A stretch of 64,000 nt of DNA, from the NCBI RefSeq assembly GCF_024298765.1, contig NZ_CP101210.1, one strand, 5' to 3'. Within the stretch, counting starts at the first letter, position 1. Each line of letters opens with the position of its first letter. This document shows, piece by piece, positions 21,474 through 27,622 of the stretch. A program made the translations under genes and the position numbers. The notes under the pieces are model-generated. The model was not told where the DNA came from. It was given only the letters and a program-made list of their open reading frames with translations, and did not search any database. This DNA is from Escherichia coli (lineage in GTDB: Bacteria > Pseudomonadota > Gammaproteobacteria > Enterobacterales > Enterobacteriaceae).

Positions 21474-22301
21474 ATGAAACCAATGCAGCTAAGAATTACC
21501 AGTCGAAAAAAACTCACCTCTCTATTATGCGCTCTTGGGCTAATTTCCATCGTTGCAATTTATCCGCGTCAGACGGTGAATTTTTTCTATTCGACAGCAG
21601 TTCAGATTACAGACTACATCCACTTCTACGGTTATCGCCCGGTTAAATCTTTCGCTATTCGCATTCCTGCCAGTTACACCATTCACGGAATAGATGTTTC
21701 GCGCTGGCAGGAGCGGATCGACTGGCAGCGGGTGGCAAAAATGCGCGACAACGGTATCCGCTTACAGTTTGCTTTTATTAAGGCGACGGAAGGCGAAAAG
21801 CTGGTGGACCCCTATTTTTCGCGTAACTGGCAACTAAGCCGCGAAAATGGCCTGCTGCGTGGGGCGTATCATTATTTCTCCCCGTCGGTATCCGCTTCAG
21901 TTCAGGCGAGATTATTTCTGCAAACGGTGGATTTCTCACAAGGCGATTTCCCTGCCGTGCTGGACGTAGAAGAACGGGGAAAATTATCGGCAAAAGAATT
22001 ACGCAAGCGGGTAAGTCAGTGGCTAAAAATGGTCGAAAAAAGTACGGGGAAAAAGCCGATTATTTACTCAGGAGCCGTTTTTTATCACACCAATCTGGCG
22101 GGCTATTTCAATGAATATCCGTGGTGGGTGGCTCACTACTATCAACGTCGTCCGGACAATGACGGAATGGCCTGGCGCTTCTGGCAGCATTCCGACCGTG
22201 GACAGGTAGATGGCATCAATGGTCCGGTGGATTTTAATGTATTTAATGGCACGGTGGAGGAGTTGCAGGCATTCGTTGATGGGATTAAAGAAACGCCTTA
22301 A
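21474..22301 (+). CDS. yegX: Glycoside hydrolase family 25 (lysozyme-like) protein YegX
   Basis: 275-aa ORF with N-terminal hydrophobic segment; the true start may be a few codons downstream. Confidence 0.8.
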   Translation: MKPMQLRITSRKKLTSLLCALGLISIVAIYPRQTVNFFYSTAVQITDYIHFYGYRPVKSFAIRIPASYTIHGIDVSRWQERIDWQRVAKMRDNGIRLQFAFIKATEGEKLVDPYFSRNWQLSRENGLLRGAYHYFSPSVSASVQARLFLQTVDFSQGDFPAVLDVEERGKLSAKELRKRVSQWLKMVEKSTGKKPIIYSGAVFYHTNLAGYFNEYPWWVAHYYQRRPDNDGMAWRFWQHSDRGQVDGINGPVDFNVFNGTVEELQAFVDGIKETP

Positions 22302-22352
22302 ATAAGAAGCAGTGATATACTCCCACCAGACTCCTCGGCAGGAAAAAGACAA

Positions 22353-23099
22353 ATGGAACAAGCGCATACCCAGCTGATTGCCCAACTGAACGAGCGTATT
22401 TTAGCGGCGGATAACACGCCGCTTTATATTAAGTTTGCCGAAACGGTAAAAAATGCCGTGCGCAGCGGGGTGCTGGAGCATGGCAATATTTTGCCCGGTG
22501 AGCGTGATTTAAGTCAGTTAACCGGCGTTTCGCGCATTACGGTGCGCAAGGCGATGCAGGCGCTGGAAGAAGAGGGTGTGGTGACGCGTTCGCGCGGTTA
22601 CGGCACGCAGATCAACAACATCTTCGAATACTCGTTGAAAGAAGCGCGAGGTTTTTCTCAGCAGGTGGTATTGCGCGGGAAAAAGCCCGATACGCTATGG
22701 GTTAACAAGCGTGTCGTGAAATGTCCCGAAGAAGTCGCGCAGCAGCTGGCGGTCGAAGCAGGAAGTGATGTCTTTTTGCTTAAGCGTATTCGCTATGTCG
22801 ATGAAGAAGCGGTATCGATTGAGGAATCGTGGGTTCCGGCGCATTTAATTCATGATGTTGATGCCATCGGGATTTCACTTTATGACTATTTCCGCAGCCA
22901 GCACATTTACCCACAACGTACGCGTTCCCGCGTTAGCGCCCGGATGCCGGATGCCGAGTTTCAGTCACATATTCAGTTAGATAGCAAAATACCGGTGCTG
23001 GTGATCAAGCAAGTGGCGCTTGACCAACAGCAACGGCCTATTGAGTACAGCATTAGCCACTGTCGCAGCGATCTATACGTTTTTGTGTGCGAGGAGTAG
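22353..23099 (+). CDS. yegW: GntR-family (HutC-like) transcriptional regulator YegW
   Basis: N-terminal winged-HTH, C-terminal UTRA-like region; 248 aa. Confidence 0.85.
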   Translation: MEQAHTQLIAQLNERILAADNTPLYIKFAETVKNAVRSGVLEHGNILPGERDLSQLTGVSRITVRKAMQALEEEGVVTRSRGYGTQINNIFEYSLKEARGFSQQVVLRGKKPDTLWVNKRVVKCPEEVAQQLAVEAGSDVFLLKRIRYVDEEAVSIEESWVPAHLIHDVDAIGISLYDYFRSQHIYPQRTRSRVSARMPDAEFQSHIQLDSKIPVLVIKQVALDQQQRPIEYSISHCRSDLYVFVCEE

Positions 23100-24038
23100 T
23101 TCCTCGCGCGTTGGCGCACAATCACCGCCCCGATGCCCGACAACCCACGACGCCACTGCATTGCCCAGTAATACGGCATCCGCCAGTGGCAGACCAGAGG
23201 CCAGCCCGGCAAGTACGCCACCGGCATGACTGTCGCCCGCCCCAATGGTGTCGACAACTTGCGTTGGAAATGCCGGAATGCAGCCAGAAGCGTCGTTGCT
23301 GAAATACCATGCGCCTTCTTTATCGAGACGAACGATCAACGGCGCGGCAAATTTCTCCTGCCATTGCTTGCCAAGTGTTGTTATCTCTGCGGATAAAGCA
23401 AAACGTTCGGCGGCAATCTCAGCCTCTTGACGATTGAGCGACACTAAAGGTCGACAGGCCATGATCCGCGCCAGTAATGCATCCGGGATATCGCCAATAC
23501 GTGGGCCAAAATCGATAAACGGCGTCACGTCTTGCAGCTCTTCCAGCCATTCCACTAACAATTCGCCGCAGGGCGAGGCCAGTTGATAACCGGAAAAATA
23601 GAGCAGGCTGCCAGGCGCAACGGTTAATCGCGCCAGCCACTGGCGATTCCACTGATTTTCAACACCGCTGAATGACATAAAAGTGCGTTCGCCATCCGGC
23701 TCAACCAGCGCCAGACACCAGCCGTTATCACCTTCGGCGTTATCGATCAGGCTGATTAAGCCCTCTTTTGCCATCCGGTTGCGAATAATCTCCGCCCACA
23801 CGCCCTGACCGAGCGGCAAGGCATTACCCGCTTCGATGCCGAGGCGCTTTAACGCCACGGCAATATTCAGTGCGCAGCCGCCAACGTTAACGCTCTGCTG
23901 CTTCAGTTCGATATCGCACCCACGCCAGGGGAGGGCATAAGCGTCGGCGATCACATCAATGACCGCCGCGCCGACGACCATCACCGGCTGACGCGAGGTT
24001 AATTCAGGCAGCAGCGTGTGTAATCGAGCGCCGCTCAT
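23073..24038 (-). CDS. yegV: PfkB-family sugar/nucleoside kinase YegV
   Basis: 321 aa; GAGD motif (DTIGAGDSHAGG) typical of the ribokinase family. Confidence 0.85.
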   Translation of the reverse strand: MSGARLHTLLPELTSRQPVMVVGAAVIDVIADAYALPWRGCDIELKQQSVNVGGCALNIAVALKRLGIEAGNALPLGQGVWAEIIRNRMAKEGLISLIDNAEGDNGWCLALVEPDGERTFMSFSGVENQWNRQWLARLTVAPGSLLYFSGYQLASPCGELLVEWLEELQDVTPFIDFGPRIGDIPDALLARIMACRPLVSLNRQEAEIAAERFALSAEITTLGKQWQEKFAAPLIVRLDKEGAWYFSNDASGCIPAFPTQVVDTIGAGDSHAGGVLAGLASGLPLADAVLLGNAVASWVVGHRGGDCAPTREELLLAHKNV

Positions 24039-25039
24039 ACCGCCTCCCGTTGTTGACGATATTTCGCCAGCGCTGTGGCATAGCGGTTGAAATCAAGCTG
24101 ATTTACCGCATCCAGTTCCGCCTTTAATGCAGGATCGATAGCGTTAACGCCATGCAACGCGCCGCAAATCGCCGTCGCCATAGCGCCGATGGTGTCTGTG
24201 TCGCCGCCAAGGTTAGCGCACAGGACGGCGCAGCGATTCGGGTCGGTTTGTGCCAGTTCAACCAGCGCAATGGCGCACGGAACGGACTCAATAGTGCTGG
24301 TACCTGCGCCAACGACCTGGTAAAGCTGTTCGCTGGCGGATTCGGTGCCGTCGGCATTGCGCACAATTTTCAGCGCAATCTCCAGACGTGCTGCCAGTGA
24401 GGCGCTGAAGGTAGTGATGCGTTTTTGCTGTGCATGTCGCGCAATTGAAGGCAGGGAATCAACAATCGCTGACCAGCTTTCTCCGTCAATGGCACGAGAA
24501 ATCGCCCATGCGATGACTACCGCACCTGCAACTGCCAGATCGGATTTATGGGTCGGGCTCGACGCCAGCGCCACATCATCAATAAAGGAATCAACATCAC
24601 GCGCCGGAAGCAAACAACCTAATGGCGAGACGCGCATCGCTGCGCCGTTGGTCACGCCGTTGTTTTCCAGTTCAGCAACGGGTTTACCGTCGCGAATGGC
24701 GTTAAGCGCAATCTTCGAGGTCGGACCTAGTACGTTTTTGTTAAAGGCGTCGAAACGCAGCGCCCAGTCGAGAATATTACGCCCAATCAGATCCGGATCG
24801 ATCTTGCCTTCACGTTCCAGTAACGCATCCGCCAGACACAGCGCCATCGAGGTATCGTCGGTGAATTCGGCGCGGTTAAAATAACAGGCCGCGTTATTCT
24901 CCTTTGGTCCAGGAAGAAAACGGTCAATCCAGCCAAAGTGTGCTTTAACGCGGCTGCGTGGCCAAAGCTCGGAGGGCATCCCCATCGCATCCCCTAACGC
25001 CTGCCCATAAAGAGCACCGAGAATACGTTCTGTTTTCAT
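24035..25039 (-). CDS. yegU: ADP-ribosylglycohydrolase-family protein YegU
   Basis: 334 aa; start overlaps the yegT stop, stop overlaps the yegV start. Confidence 0.8.
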   Translation of the reverse strand: MKTERILGALYGQALGDAMGMPSELWPRSRVKAHFGWIDRFLPGPKENNAACYFNRAEFTDDTSMALCLADALLEREGKIDPDLIGRNILDWALRFDAFNKNVLGPTSKIALNAIRDGKPVAELENNGVTNGAAMRVSPLGCLLPARDVDSFIDDVALASSPTHKSDLAVAGAVVIAWAISRAIDGESWSAIVDSLPSIARHAQQKRITTFSASLAARLEIALKIVRNADGTESASEQLYQVVGAGTSTIESVPCAIALVELAQTDPNRCAVLCANLGGDTDTIGAMATAICGALHGVNAIDPALKAELDAVNQLDFNRYATALAKYRQQREAV

Positions 25040-26313
25040 TTAACTTCCCCTTGTGTCAACGCAATATCGCGATCATCGACCTTGATAGCCGTAATTTCGT
25101 TGTCGGATTCGCGGAAAAAAATCATGAACAGCACGGCGATAATGGCAATCATCACCGCGCCGAAAGTCCACATCCCGGACCAGTTGAAAGTCAGTCCGTT
25201 TACCGGTTCCTGATAAGCGAACATCTTTTCCATCATCACACCGCCAAGACGATAGCCGAGCAAACTGCCGAAGCCCTGGCAGCAGAGCGTGATCAGCCCC
25301 TGCGCAGCGGTACGCATATGCACGGGGGCTTTTTTATCGACATAGATGTAAGCGGTAACGTAGTAAAAATCGTAACTTACGCCGTGAAGCAAAATACCGA
25401 GGAACAGTAACGCGTAGGTGAAATATTCATCCGCACTACCGTAAATAAAGAAGCCATAGCGGATCGCAGCGGTGACCAGACCAAGCAATAATACCTTTTT
25501 GATACCAAAGCGTTTAGTGAAAAACGGCAATGCCAGCATAAAGAAGATTTCAGAGAACTGGCCGAGCGTCATCCAGCCGGTGGCGTTTTTCATGCCAACT
25601 TCGGTCAGATAACCGTTGGCAAAGATGTAATAGAACGCTAGTGGCATCGCAAACAGGAATGAACAGAAGAAAAAGACGAGGAAGTTTTTATCGCGCAGCA
25701 GGATCAGCGCATCCAGGCCGAGCATGACTTTAATATCCATTTTGCCGGTGCTTTTTGGTGGCGTGTCGGGCAGGAAAAACGCAAACACACCGAGCAGAGC
25801 AGAACTTCCGGCGGTAATCAGCAGCGGGATGTTAGTCGGTGAGATATCGGCATACCCCAGTATTTGCGGCAAGAAACCACATGCCAGACCGGAGGCAATC
25901 CAGCCGATAGTGCCCATCACACGAATGCGCGGGAAATCACGCTCAACATCCGGCACGTTGGCAAAAGCGATGCTGTTAGTCAGCGCAATGGTCGGCATAT
26001 AGGTTAGCGAGTAGGCCAGCAGTAACGGGAAGAACCCGGCAAAAGTGGTCTGTTGCGCAGCGAAATACATCAGCAGCGCGCCTGCGAACATCAATACCGC
26101 CAGCACTTTCTGCGCCGAGAAAAAGCGGTCAGTGATGGAGCCAACCAGAATTGGCGACAGGATCGCCGCAATGGCGGTACAGGCATACGACCAGCCAATT
26201 TCTCCGGCACTAAAACCGCTTTTACTTAACCACAAGCACAATGGCACAAACCACGCGCCCCAGATAAACCATTCAACAAACATCATGAACGACAGCTTTG
26301 CTGTTGTTTTCAT
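25036..26313 (-). CDS. yegT: MFS nucleoside transporter-like protein YegT
   Basis: 425 aa, 12-TM profile, NupG/XapB-like. Confidence 0.85.
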   Translation of the reverse strand: MKTTAKLSFMMFVEWFIWGAWFVPLCLWLSKSGFSAGEIGWSYACTAIAAILSPILVGSITDRFFSAQKVLAVLMFAGALLMYFAAQQTTFAGFFPLLLAYSLTYMPTIALTNSIAFANVPDVERDFPRIRVMGTIGWIASGLACGFLPQILGYADISPTNIPLLITAGSSALLGVFAFFLPDTPPKSTGKMDIKVMLGLDALILLRDKNFLVFFFCSFLFAMPLAFYYIFANGYLTEVGMKNATGWMTLGQFSEIFFMLALPFFTKRFGIKKVLLLGLVTAAIRYGFFIYGSADEYFTYALLFLGILLHGVSYDFYYVTAYIYVDKKAPVHMRTAAQGLITLCCQGFGSLLGYRLGGVMMEKMFAYQEPVNGLTFNWSGMWTFGAVMIAIIAVLFMIFFRESDNEITAIKVDDRDIALTQGEVK

Positions 26314-26569
26314 CTTTTAATTCCTTCATGACAGGTAATGTAAGGTACGCGATGACAATACCACTTAATGATACCTTTTAAATACCTTTGCGGTGAAAAC
26401 TTGACCGCGCTAACATTTTTTCTGATGAATCGAGCCAACAGAAAACGCTGAAAAAACATCCAAAAGATGGAAAAACTCGCCCGTAACGACCAGGATTATG
26501 ATTGCCCGCAAAAGGCGGGCCAGGAAAATCCATAGCCGATATCCAATCGGAATTTACGGGAGCATAGTA

Positions 26570-27622
26570 ATGACAGATATTGCGCAGTTGCTTGGCAAAG
26601 ACGCCGACAACCTTTTACAGCACCGTTGTATGACTATTCCTTCTGACCAGCTTTATCTCCCCGGACATGACTACGTAGACCGCGTGATGATTGACAATAA
26701 TCGCCCGCCTGCGGTGTTACGTAATATGCAGACGTTGTACAACACCGGGCGTCTGGCTGGCACAGGATATCTTTCTATTCTGCCGGTTGACCAGGGCGTT
26801 GAGCACTCTGCCGGAGCTTCATTTGCTGCTAACCCGCTCTACTTTGACCCGAAAAACATTGTTGAACTGGCGATCGAAGCGGGCTGTAACTGTGTGGCGT
26901 CAACTTACGGCGTGCTGGCGTCGGTATCGCGGCGTTATGCGCATCGCATTCCATTCCTCGTCAAACTTAATCACAACGAGACGCTAAGTTACCCAAACAC
27001 CTACGATCAGACGCTGTATGCCAGCGTGGAGCAGGCGTTCAACATGGGCGCGGTGGCGGTTGGTGCGACTATCTATTTTGGCTCGGAAGAGTCACGTCGC
27101 CAGATTGAAGAAATTTCTGCGGCTTTTGAACGTGCGCACGAGCTGGGCATGGTGACAGTGCTGTGGGCCTATTTGCGTAACTCCGCCTTTAAGAAAGATG
27201 GCGTTGATTACCATGTCTCCGCCGACCTGACTGGTCAGGCGAACCATCTGGCGGCAACCATAGGTGCAGATATCGTCAAACAAAAAATGGCGGAAAATAA
27301 CGGCGGCTATAAAGCGATTAATTACGGTTATACCGACGATCGCGTGTACAGCAAGTTAACCAGCGAAAACCCGATTGATCTGGTGCGTTATCAGTTAGCT
27401 AACTGCTATATGGGCCGGGCTGGGTTGATAAACTCCGGCGGTGCTGCGGGCGGTGAAACTGACCTCAGTGATGCAGTGCGTACTGCGGTTATCAACAAAC
27501 GCGCTGGCGGAATGGGGCTGATTCTTGGACGTAAAGCGTTCAAGAAATCGATGGCTGACGGCGTGAAACTGATTAACGCCGTGCAGGACGTTTATCTCGA
27601 TAGCAAAATTACTATCGCCTGA
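26570..27622 (+). CDS. fbaB: Fructose-bisphosphate aldolase class I
   Basis: Start set at [10 protein letters not shown] (26570), 350 aa. Confidence 0.9.

Follow-up and report, generated by a model that had tools for sequence, protein, structure and literature searches.

The yegT-yegU-yegV operon (yegTUV) of Escherichia coli, which lies together with its repressor gene yegW (now ggaR) in the 64,000-nucleotide (nt) stretch of chromosome analyzed here (contig NZ_CP101210.1; hereafter the window), quite probably serves the uptake and breakdown of a non-canonical riboside. The substrate suggested by the gene neighborhoods of its relatives is a pyridine riboside, namely nicotinamide riboside (NR) and/or nicotinic-acid riboside (NaR), to which we would give a probability of about 0.45. 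The operon, its regulator, and much of the interpretation offered in an earlier reading of the window (the original prediction) are already known; what is left as new is the biochemical function of a core E. coli operon and a substrate hypothesis derived from gene neighborhoods. The original prediction held that the substrate cannot be read from sequence, which is correct for the single locus but too pessimistic once the neighborhoods of relatives are compared.

Conserved YegU-YegV Core and Exchangeable Transporters

A search of 1.8 billion representative proteins with YegU as the query (E ≤ 1e-30) gave 234 relatives, and a separate large protein search gave only relatives of at least 82% identity. 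Public contigs, annotated plasmids, and 80 additional metagenomic loci supplied the gene contexts; the metagenomic loci were obtained with a family-consensus query and processed by clustering of all open reading frames (ORFs) with shadow filtering. A gene for a PfkB-family kinase, the family of YegV, adjoins the gene for the ADP-ribosylglycohydrolase (ARH) homologous to YegU in 58 of the 80 metagenomic loci, and a GntR-family regulator gene is found nearby in 42 of them. Furthermore, eight proteins of ~600–760 amino acids (aa) that were checked proved to be fusions of the two enzymes, in both the ARH-PfkB and the PfkB-ARH orders. In the E. coli operon itself, yegT/yegU and yegU/yegV are joined by ATGA overlaps preceded by the Shine-Dalgarno-like motifs GGGGAAG and GGGAGG, respectively, which upholds the translational coupling of the three genes assumed in the original prediction. 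Because of the ATGA overlap, the fusions in both orders, and the adjacency of PfkB and ARH genes, we infer that YegU and YegV are functionally coupled.

The importer next to this ARH-PfkB(-GntR) core is variable and belongs to the NHS, NCS1, PotD/ThiB-like ABC, ECF, or PnuC types. The YegT-type NHS importer occurs in enteric-like loci, and an NCS1 permease takes this position in ~28 metagenomic loci as well as in Plesiomonas, Lactobacillaceae plasmids, and Paraburkholderia. The displacement of transporters around a constant core points to a small-molecule utilization pathway rather than to a protein de-ADP-ribosylase.

Related ARH genes were also observed in arrangements that do not contain a PfkB gene. 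In a variant cluster (loci L117, L121, L141, and L151; also L109 and L115), the ARH gene is preceded, in this order, by genes for GntR, a ~176-aa protein, a 272-aa AIR-synthase-related protein of the PurM/ThiL superfamily, EcfA, and EcfT; a different ATP-using protein may replace the kinase there. Large proteins, one of them resembling a TonB-dependent receptor, are encoded after the ARH gene in these loci, and L115 and L141 also contain a CNT transporter. In Enterococcus raffinosus (L098) and Listeria monocytogenes (L101), an ARH gene whose product is 31–35% identical to YegU directly follows genes for a PRD antiterminator and a beta-glucoside-type phosphotransferase system (PTS) IIABC protein. 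This type is probably a separate subfamily that acts on a PTS-phosphorylated glycoside.

Pyridine-Type Neighbors of the Cassette

Five contigs carry the gene order ARH>PfkB>PnuC. Their PnuC proteins match Pfam NMN_transporter (3.6e-49) and score 149 bits against a cut-off of 42 with TIGR01528, the equivalog model for the nicotinamide riboside transporter, and their ARH proteins are 42–45% identical to YegU and, beyond the YegU-type clade of gamma-proteobacteria, among its closest relatives. On a Lactiplantibacillus plantarum plasmid, an ARH-NCS1-PfkB cassette is located 306 bp downstream of genes for a Nudix protein with NrtR as its best match, for PncB (683 bits), and for an isochorismatase with nicotinamidase as its best match. 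NrtR is an ADP-ribose-responsive regulator of nicotinamide adenine dinucleotide (NAD) genes. The combination nrtR-pncA-pncB is a known type of NAD-salvage locus in lactobacilli (PMC2330246). Six metagenomic loci and one locus encoding a fusion protein also have an isochorismatase-family gene that directly precedes the ARH gene in the same orientation, the usual order being NCS1>isochorismatase>ARH>PfkB.

In Pantoea sp. At-9b and P. dispersa, true orthologs of yegT-U-V-W (75% identity) stand directly after a nicotinate-degradation gene set. Besides a 2,5-dihydroxypyridine 5,6-dioxygenase, so named in RefSeq, this set encodes a MarR regulator and an MFS transporter, hydroxylase subunits of the 2Fe-2S and molybdopterin types, an FAD monooxygenase, an alpha/beta hydrolase, an isomerase of the Asp/Glu-racemase type, and an amidase of the isochorismatase type. 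From its resemblance to the nic genes of Pseudomonas putida, we take this set to be a complete nic cluster. In addition, two further cassettes include purine nucleoside phosphorylases, one of the DeoD type (358 bits) and one PunA-like, and purine nucleoside phosphorylase is known to cleave NR, as indicated by the title of a published study (PMC9667316). The pyridine-type links are mutually independent and specific. The linkage to NAD and niacin genes is seen in relatives, and the neighbors in E. coli itself are fbaB and thiDM.

Properties of YegU, YegV, and YegT

Pfam and NCBIfam profile searches upheld the families named for YegT, YegU, YegV, and YegW in the original prediction; a reassignment of YegU or YegT to an unrelated family, which it had named beforehand as evidence against itself, was not found in these searches. 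YegU matches PF03747 over its full length (residues 8–302) with 224.9 bits against a cut-off of 26.2. Its nearest solved structures are MJ1187 (2e-29) and ARH3 (2e-16), with DraG as another relative in the PDB, and the ARH fold is fixed by these sequence-level matches. In common with ARH3, DraG, and MJ1187, YegU has a two-metal site (motifs TDDT and GGDTDT), an ARH3-type Glu, an NGAAMR loop, and a TH motif. The residues T60-D61-D62-T63 and D280/D282/T283 align with T76-D77-D78-T79 and D314/D316/T317 of the binuclear metal site of ARH3 and are invariant or at least 90% conserved in 40 homologs, in which H164 and the TNGAAMR loop are also near-invariant. E24 aligns with E41, the catalytic residue of ARH3, and this position is E in 28 of the 40 family members and mostly Q (6) or S (4) in the others. 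Together, these features make YegU look like a competent ARH-type hydrolase.

YegU differs from ARH3 and DraG in several respects. F143 and Y149 of ARH3, which we take to be the adenine-stacking or adenosine-binding pair, are replaced by N and V in a part of the YegU alignment that spans a 3-residue deletion; the equivalog cut-offs for DraG (80 bits vs. 337) and Tri1 (69 bits vs. 490) are missed; and the gene resides in a transporter-kinase operon. Since the metal site is kept and the adenine-stacking residues are not, the substrate of YegU probably lacks the adenosine part of ADP-ribose. The transporter-plus-kinase operon and the PfkB fusions in relatives further suggest a free small molecule as the substrate. 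We propose that YegU acts as a glycosidase on a riboside or a 5′-phosphoriboside and sets free the aglycone. Literature searches for YegU and YegV by name returned no functional study, and those for ADP-ribosylglycohydrolase combined with PfkB, nucleoside, or nicotinamide riboside returned no assignment of a free-riboside activity to the family.

The best NCBIfam match of YegV is the ribokinase model TIGR02152, at 82 bits against a cut-off of 300. D16, G41-G42, N46, N187/E190, and D255 of RbsK (the GG and NxxE motifs and the Asp of GAGD) are kept in YegV and are invariant among the YegV-type kinases aligned; we take these residues to provide ribofuranose-diol binding and the catalytic base, as judged from other PfkB kinases. 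Three further residues of RbsK, which are presumably its contacts with free ribose, are replaced in YegV: N14 by V, K43 by C (in a conserved GGC), and E143 by A. A plain ribokinase was rejected on the basis of the low score and these three replacements. The residues of YegV would suit the phosphorylation of a riboside, or of ribose in another binding mode, and we propose that YegV acts as a 5′-kinase for one of the two. In a 2025 preprint, YegV is still listed as an uncharacterized sugar kinase.

YegT exceeds the cut-off of TIGR00889, the NHS family model (651.7 bits vs. 446.1). Its crystal structure, reported in 2025 at 3.1 Å, showed that the uridine-contacting residues of NupG are not conserved, and no significant binding of U, A, C, or G was measured by isothermal titration calorimetry (PMC11979927). 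In another study, no uptake of gemcitabine, xanthosine, uridine, or cytidine by YegT was detectable (PMC11241209). YegT is thus an NHS member without the usual substrates of this family, in agreement with the modified substrate envisaged in the original prediction. A pyridine riboside as the substrate would explain why normal nucleosides are neither bound nor transported.

GgaR and Its Predicted Operator

YegW consists of an N-terminal GntR winged helix-turn-helix (wHTH) domain and a C-terminal UTRA effector domain, as found with Pfam profiles, and its best NCBIfam similarities, both below their cut-offs, are to PhnF and HutC. It was renamed GgaR in 2024 by Saito et al., who described it as a single-target repressor on the basis of chromatin immunoprecipitation with microarray hybridization (ChIP-chip), electrophoretic mobility shift assay (EMSA), Northern blot, and reverse transcription quantitative PCR (PMC10819704). 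The only genomic ChIP-chip peak is located at the fbaB/yegT spacer. In EMSA, GgaR bound probe-2, a fragment of 190 bp upstream of yegT, and bound probe-5, a 299-bp fragment of the yegT ORF (nt 571–869), more weakly and at a higher protein concentration. The yegTUV genes are transcribed as a single 3.3-kb mRNA, which is undetectable in the wild type and ~30-fold increased in the yegW mutant, and the expression of fbaB is unaffected by GgaR. ADP-glucose at 10–100 µM releases GgaR from DNA in vitro, which ADP and glucose do not. The glycogen content of the ggaR mutant is 2–3 times higher, its growth on glucose minimal medium is poor, and an earlier screen cited in the same paper found that deletion of yegV lowered glycogen (PMC10819704). 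Repression of the operon by a convergent HutC-type GntR regulator and the co-transcription of yegTUV, both implied in the original prediction, were accordingly in print, as was the DNA-binding assay of YegW on the yegT upstream region that it called for, with binding found (PMC10819704).

When 82 distinct yegT upstream regions were aligned, conservation was highest in a block that reads, on the yegT strand, AAAGGTATTTAAAAGGTAT..TGGTAT..GTACC..TTACC..CTGTCATGAAGG, with at least 95% identity in most columns. We predict it to be the GgaR operator (coordinates of its elements are given in Table 1). The sole sigma-70-like promoter candidate in the fbaB-yegT spacer, TTCACC-18-TATCAT, has a −10 element that reads TATTAT in most other species. 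Because this candidate −10 overlaps the second GGTAT unit, bound GgaR would occlude RNA polymerase.

The whole window was also searched for AAGGTATN5AGGTAT with up to two mismatches. Two matches were obtained, where ~0.7 would be expected by chance in 64 kb: the spacer site and a second element inside yegT. The latter is located within the 299-bp fragment that is weakly bound by GgaR (PMC10819704), a coincidence with an estimated chance of roughly 0.003, and its conservation (rank 187 of 1258 windows) is not separable from coding constraint. The predicted GGTAT operator accounts for both published GgaR-binding regions.

Proposed Pathway and Competing Explanations

In the proposed mechanism, GgaR on the GGTAT repeats over the −10 element and the transcription start would keep the promoter shut, and would leave the DNA once its UTRA domain has bound a pathway ligand that is ADP-sugar-like or phosphorylated. 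YegT would import the pyridine riboside by proton symport, YegV would phosphorylate the ribose 5′-OH with ATP, and YegU, as a two-metal ARH-fold hydrolase, would cut the C1 bond of the ribose. Overall, the riboside would yield ribose-5-phosphate and nicotinamide or nicotinate, whichever of the YegV and YegU steps comes first. Ribose-5-phosphate would enter the pentose-phosphate pathway, and the base would be salvaged by PncA/PncB or, in Pantoea, degraded by the neighboring nic pathway. The order leans slightly toward a kinase step before cleavage, as suggested by the phosphate-loop motifs that YegU retains, by the co-occurrence of PfkB with the facilitator PnuC, and by the tendency of UTRA repressors to sense phosphorylated intermediates. 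YegU might correspond to what we take to be the long-orphan nicotinamide mononucleotide (NMN) glycohydrolase activity of E. coli. On a wider scale, we regard it as possible rather than probable that YegU founds a widespread ARH-fold group acting on free NR, NaR, NMN, or nicotinic-acid mononucleotide and not on ADP-ribosylated macromolecules, so that yegTUV would be a second, GgaR-controlled route for vitamin-B3 ribosides to niacin and ribose-5-phosphate in E. coli and in many gut, dairy, and plant-associated bacteria.

Several points weigh against a pyridine riboside. Characterized ARH enzymes cleave alpha-linked ADP-ribosyl bonds, whereas NR is a beta-riboside, and E. coli already has PnuC/NadR for NR. 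The link of YegT, YegU, and YegV to pyridine compounds is drawn from gene neighborhoods, among which the pyridine-linked ones are a minority, most cassettes having no informative neighbor. Outside Pantoea, the ARH proteins concerned are only 35–45% identical to YegU, equal function being assumed, and the isochorismatases encoded in the operons fall below the cut-off of the nicotinamidase model. The adjacency in Pantoea may reflect a single historical event. Finally, ADP-glucose is the sole effector reported for GgaR, and glycogen accumulation is the phenotype described (PMC10819704). The effect of ADP-glucose may be a cross-reaction of GgaR with a compound resembling its ligand, which would be similar to ADP-ribose or NMN.

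A cassette of the same type could act on another unusual riboside or sugar conjugate, such as a modified RNA nucleoside, a nucleoside antibiotic, or an alpha-riboside. The fusions, the transporter displacement, and the ribokinase-like YegV fit such a compound as well, as do the lack of a pyridine-related neighbor in most cassettes and the fact that transporters of other vitamins or bases are known in each of the NCS1, ECF, ABC, and PnuC families. However, this explanation, which we consider rather unlikely, gives no account of why a PnuC equivalog, NrtR-like/PncB genes, isochorismatase genes, and a nic cluster recur beside the cassette in unrelated lineages. The published model, in which yegTUV supplies ADP-glucose by import or production and GgaR is a sensor of glucose status that limits glycogen (PMC10819704), has the selective release of GgaR by ADP-glucose, the phenotypes of the ggaR mutant, and the cited yegV-deletion screen in its favor. 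Nevertheless, it proposes no enzymatic step from YegT, YegU, or YegV to ADP-glucose, and an ARH-fold hydrolase and a sugar kinase would consume rather than make an ADP-sugar. The EMSA panel comprised three ligands and did not include ADP-ribose, NAD, NMN, or ribosides, one of which ADP-glucose may mimic, and the 30-fold overexpression of permease, kinase, and glycosidase could affect glycogen and growth in an indirect way. Moreover, the cassette is accompanied elsewhere by transporters of the vitamin or nucleobase type and by genes of NAD or niacin metabolism, and no glycogen gene was among the partners identified. For these reasons, we judge the model improbable.

The retention of the catalytic Glu (E24, corresponding to E41) and the closer similarity of YegU to ARH3 than to DraG would also suit an O-ribosylated purine nucleoside, e.g., 2′-O-alpha-ribosyladenosine, derived from poly(ADP-ribose), pRib-AMP, or the Ar(p) of tRNA. 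YegU would then cut the ribose-ribose bond in the manner of ARH3, providing ribose for YegV and adenosine for a purine nucleoside phosphorylase, two types of which are present in two cassettes. An alpha linkage, as in the known ARH substrates, and the response of GgaR to an adenine-containing ADP-sugar are consistent with this idea. It appears quite improbable, since the compound is scarce in nature, the presumed adenine-stacking pair F143/Y149 of ARH3 is N/V in YegU, and the PnuC, NrtR-like/PncB, isochorismatase, and nic-cluster neighbors are left unexplained. The family name and the profile matches to DraG and Tri1 would be accommodated if YegU were a DraG-like regulatory protein de-ADP-ribosylase with functionally unrelated neighbors. 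This is highly improbable in view of scores far below both equivalog cut-offs, of the operonic coupling and fusion with PfkB, and of the constant linkage to a small-molecule importer across phyla. A thiamine-related substrate was considered because of the thiDM adjacency and the thiamine-transporting members of NCS1, PnuC, ECF, and ABC families. It was set aside because Pectobacterium, Pantoea, and all distant cassettes lack this adjacency and because thiamine has no ribosyl bond for a pair of an ARH and a ribokinase-like enzyme. The pyridine riboside is the substrate that we prefer.

Organization and Conservation of the Locus

The gene order in the window is rcnR-thiM-thiD-yegX-yegW-yegV-yegU-yegT-fbaB, and all five ORFs from yegX to yegT were found at the coordinates given in the original prediction (Table 1). 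The 5.4-kb locus is present at a coverage of at least 80% in 5420 of 5426 complete E. coli genomes and belongs to the E. coli core. In the K-12 RefSeq record, YegU, YegV, and YegX are still called putative, and yegW carries the name GgaR. Because the coding 3′ ends of yegV and yegW overlap by 27 nt, there is no space for separate terminators of the two genes, and the pair has been listed among convergent gene pairs with transcript overlaps (excludon candidates; PMC12288877).

Table 1. Coordinates of genes and predicted regulatory elements in the window.
Feature	Position	Strand	Assignment or basis
yegX	21474-22301	+	GH25 muramidase/endolysin-like; PF01183 1e-54
yegW (ggaR)	22353-23099	+	HutC-subfamily GntR repressor; PF00392 3e-16 and PF07702 (UTRA) 2e-36
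yegV/yegW convergent coding 3′-end overlap, 27 nt	23073-23099	.	coordinates and sequence
yegV	23073-24038	-	PfkB-family kinase; PF00294 2.5e-56
yegU	24035-25039	-	ARH/DraG-fold enzyme; PF03747 2e-66
yegT	25036-26313	-	NHS (MFS) permease, first gene of the operon; Pfam Nuc_H_symport 2e-183
Second GGTAT-N6-GGTAT element	25491-25508	-	inside yegT, ORF nt 806-823; candidate weaker GgaR site
fbaB-yegT divergent intergenic region	26314-26569	.	span assumes the 350-aa fbaB start at 26570
Predicted GgaR operator	26334-26390	-	upstream conservation; inside the 190-bp GgaR-bound probe-2
Three direct GGTAT units	26386-26382, 26375-26371, 26362-26358	-	spacings of 11 and 13 nt
Inverted GTACC; inverted TTACC	26348-26344; 26338-26334	-	part of the predicted operator
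Sigma-70-like promoter candidate TTCACC-18-TATCAT	26368-26397	-	consensus scan only

The mechanical start of the fbaB ORF is at 26498 (374 aa), and the 350-aa homologs of Salmonella and Klebsiella correspond to a start at 26570. A GC-rich hairpin, GCCCGCCTTTTGCGGGC, occupies positions 26493-26531 on the fbaB side of the spacer; the upstream alignment shows partial conservation of this hairpin across Enterobacterales, and it may belong to the 5′ region of fbaB. Within the four-gene unit yegTUVW, identity to the window (loci L001–L090) is 83–95% for YegT, ~80–93% for YegW, 77–91% for YegU, and 62–84% for YegV, the fastest-evolving member. Several PLSDB plasmid records of 4.8–4.9 Mb that contain the yegTUVW locus are evidently misfiled E. 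coli chromosomes.

The original prediction had grouped YegX, located between thiD and yegW, with the cassette, an assignment that does not stand. One genome per species was scanned, and among the 80 Enterobacterales loci recovered, tblastn detected yegX only in Escherichia (E. coli and E. whittamii; loci L012–L014). In more than 60 non-Escherichia species, yegW is 35–60 bp from thiD with no yegX between them; Salmonella and Klebsiella show the order fbaB / yegT-U-V / yegW / thiD-thiM without yegX; and Pectobacterium and Pantoea have yegT-U-V-W without fbaB, thiDM, or yegX. The G+C content is ~0.49 in yegX vs. ~0.55 in thiD. By this comparison of loci, yegX is an insertion of the Escherichia lineage beside the cassette, and the conserved unit is yegT-U-V plus yegW. 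YegX matches PHROG families of phage endolysins and has an N-terminal hydrophobic segment, as read by eye, from which secretion can only be inferred; the gene looks like a domesticated or remnant lysis gene. Its K-12 annotation begins 9 nt later than the ORF in the window, giving 272 aa. YegX as a partner of the cassette, for instance in a pathway for a peptidoglycan-derived substrate, was rejected, since it is an Escherichia-only insertion that resembles phage endolysins.

Comparison with Known Systems and Implications

The closest functional analog of yegTUV is psuK-psuG-psuT (yeiC-yeiN-yeiM) of E. coli, which likewise combines a nucleoside-family transporter, a PfkB kinase, and an enzyme acting on a ribosyl-base bond, and whose PsuK aligns with YegV across the PfkB core. 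The psuKGT pathway yields ribose-5-phosphate and a base. However, PsuG does not have the ARH fold, the transporter is of the CNT rather than the NHS type, and the substrate and the order of steps are established for psu only. The rus loci of Bacteroidetes also bring together ribokinases, a transporter, and variable ribose-releasing enzymes including ADP-ribosylglycohydrolases, for which the release of ribose from sources of the NAD or ADP-ribose type has been proposed (bioRxiv 10.1101/574913). They are ribose-induced polysaccharide utilization loci of the SusC/D type in which the ADP-ribosylglycohydrolase is accessory, whereas yegTUVW is a compact set of an inner-membrane importer, a hydrolase, and a kinase under a GntR/UTRA repressor.

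If the proposed substrate is right, yegTUV would resemble PnuC-NadR salvage in coupling the import of NR to an intracellular kinase, PnuC being the transporter that replaces YegT in the five operons. NadR converts NR into NMN and NAD with the glycosidic bond intact, whereas the glycosidase of a yeg-type module would set the base free for PncA/PncB or nic catabolism and channel the ribose into central metabolism. GgaR shares with the HutC/UTRA repressors NagR, TreR, PhnF, and FrlR the wHTH-UTRA architecture and the repression of a single adjacent operon; unlike theirs, its predicted operator is a direct GGTAT array with two inverted units and not one short palindrome.

The evidence from gene neighborhoods narrows the candidate substrates to a short list of NR, NaR, and their phosphates, and makes ADP-ribose or NMN candidate ligands of GgaR. 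If the proposal is true, the glycogen phenotype behind the name GgaR would need to be re-examined. The cleavage of a free riboside would be a new chemistry for the ARH fold, and yegTUV would represent a bacterial route of nicotinamide riboside degradation, which would be relevant to how gut and food bacteria handle this widely used NAD precursor.

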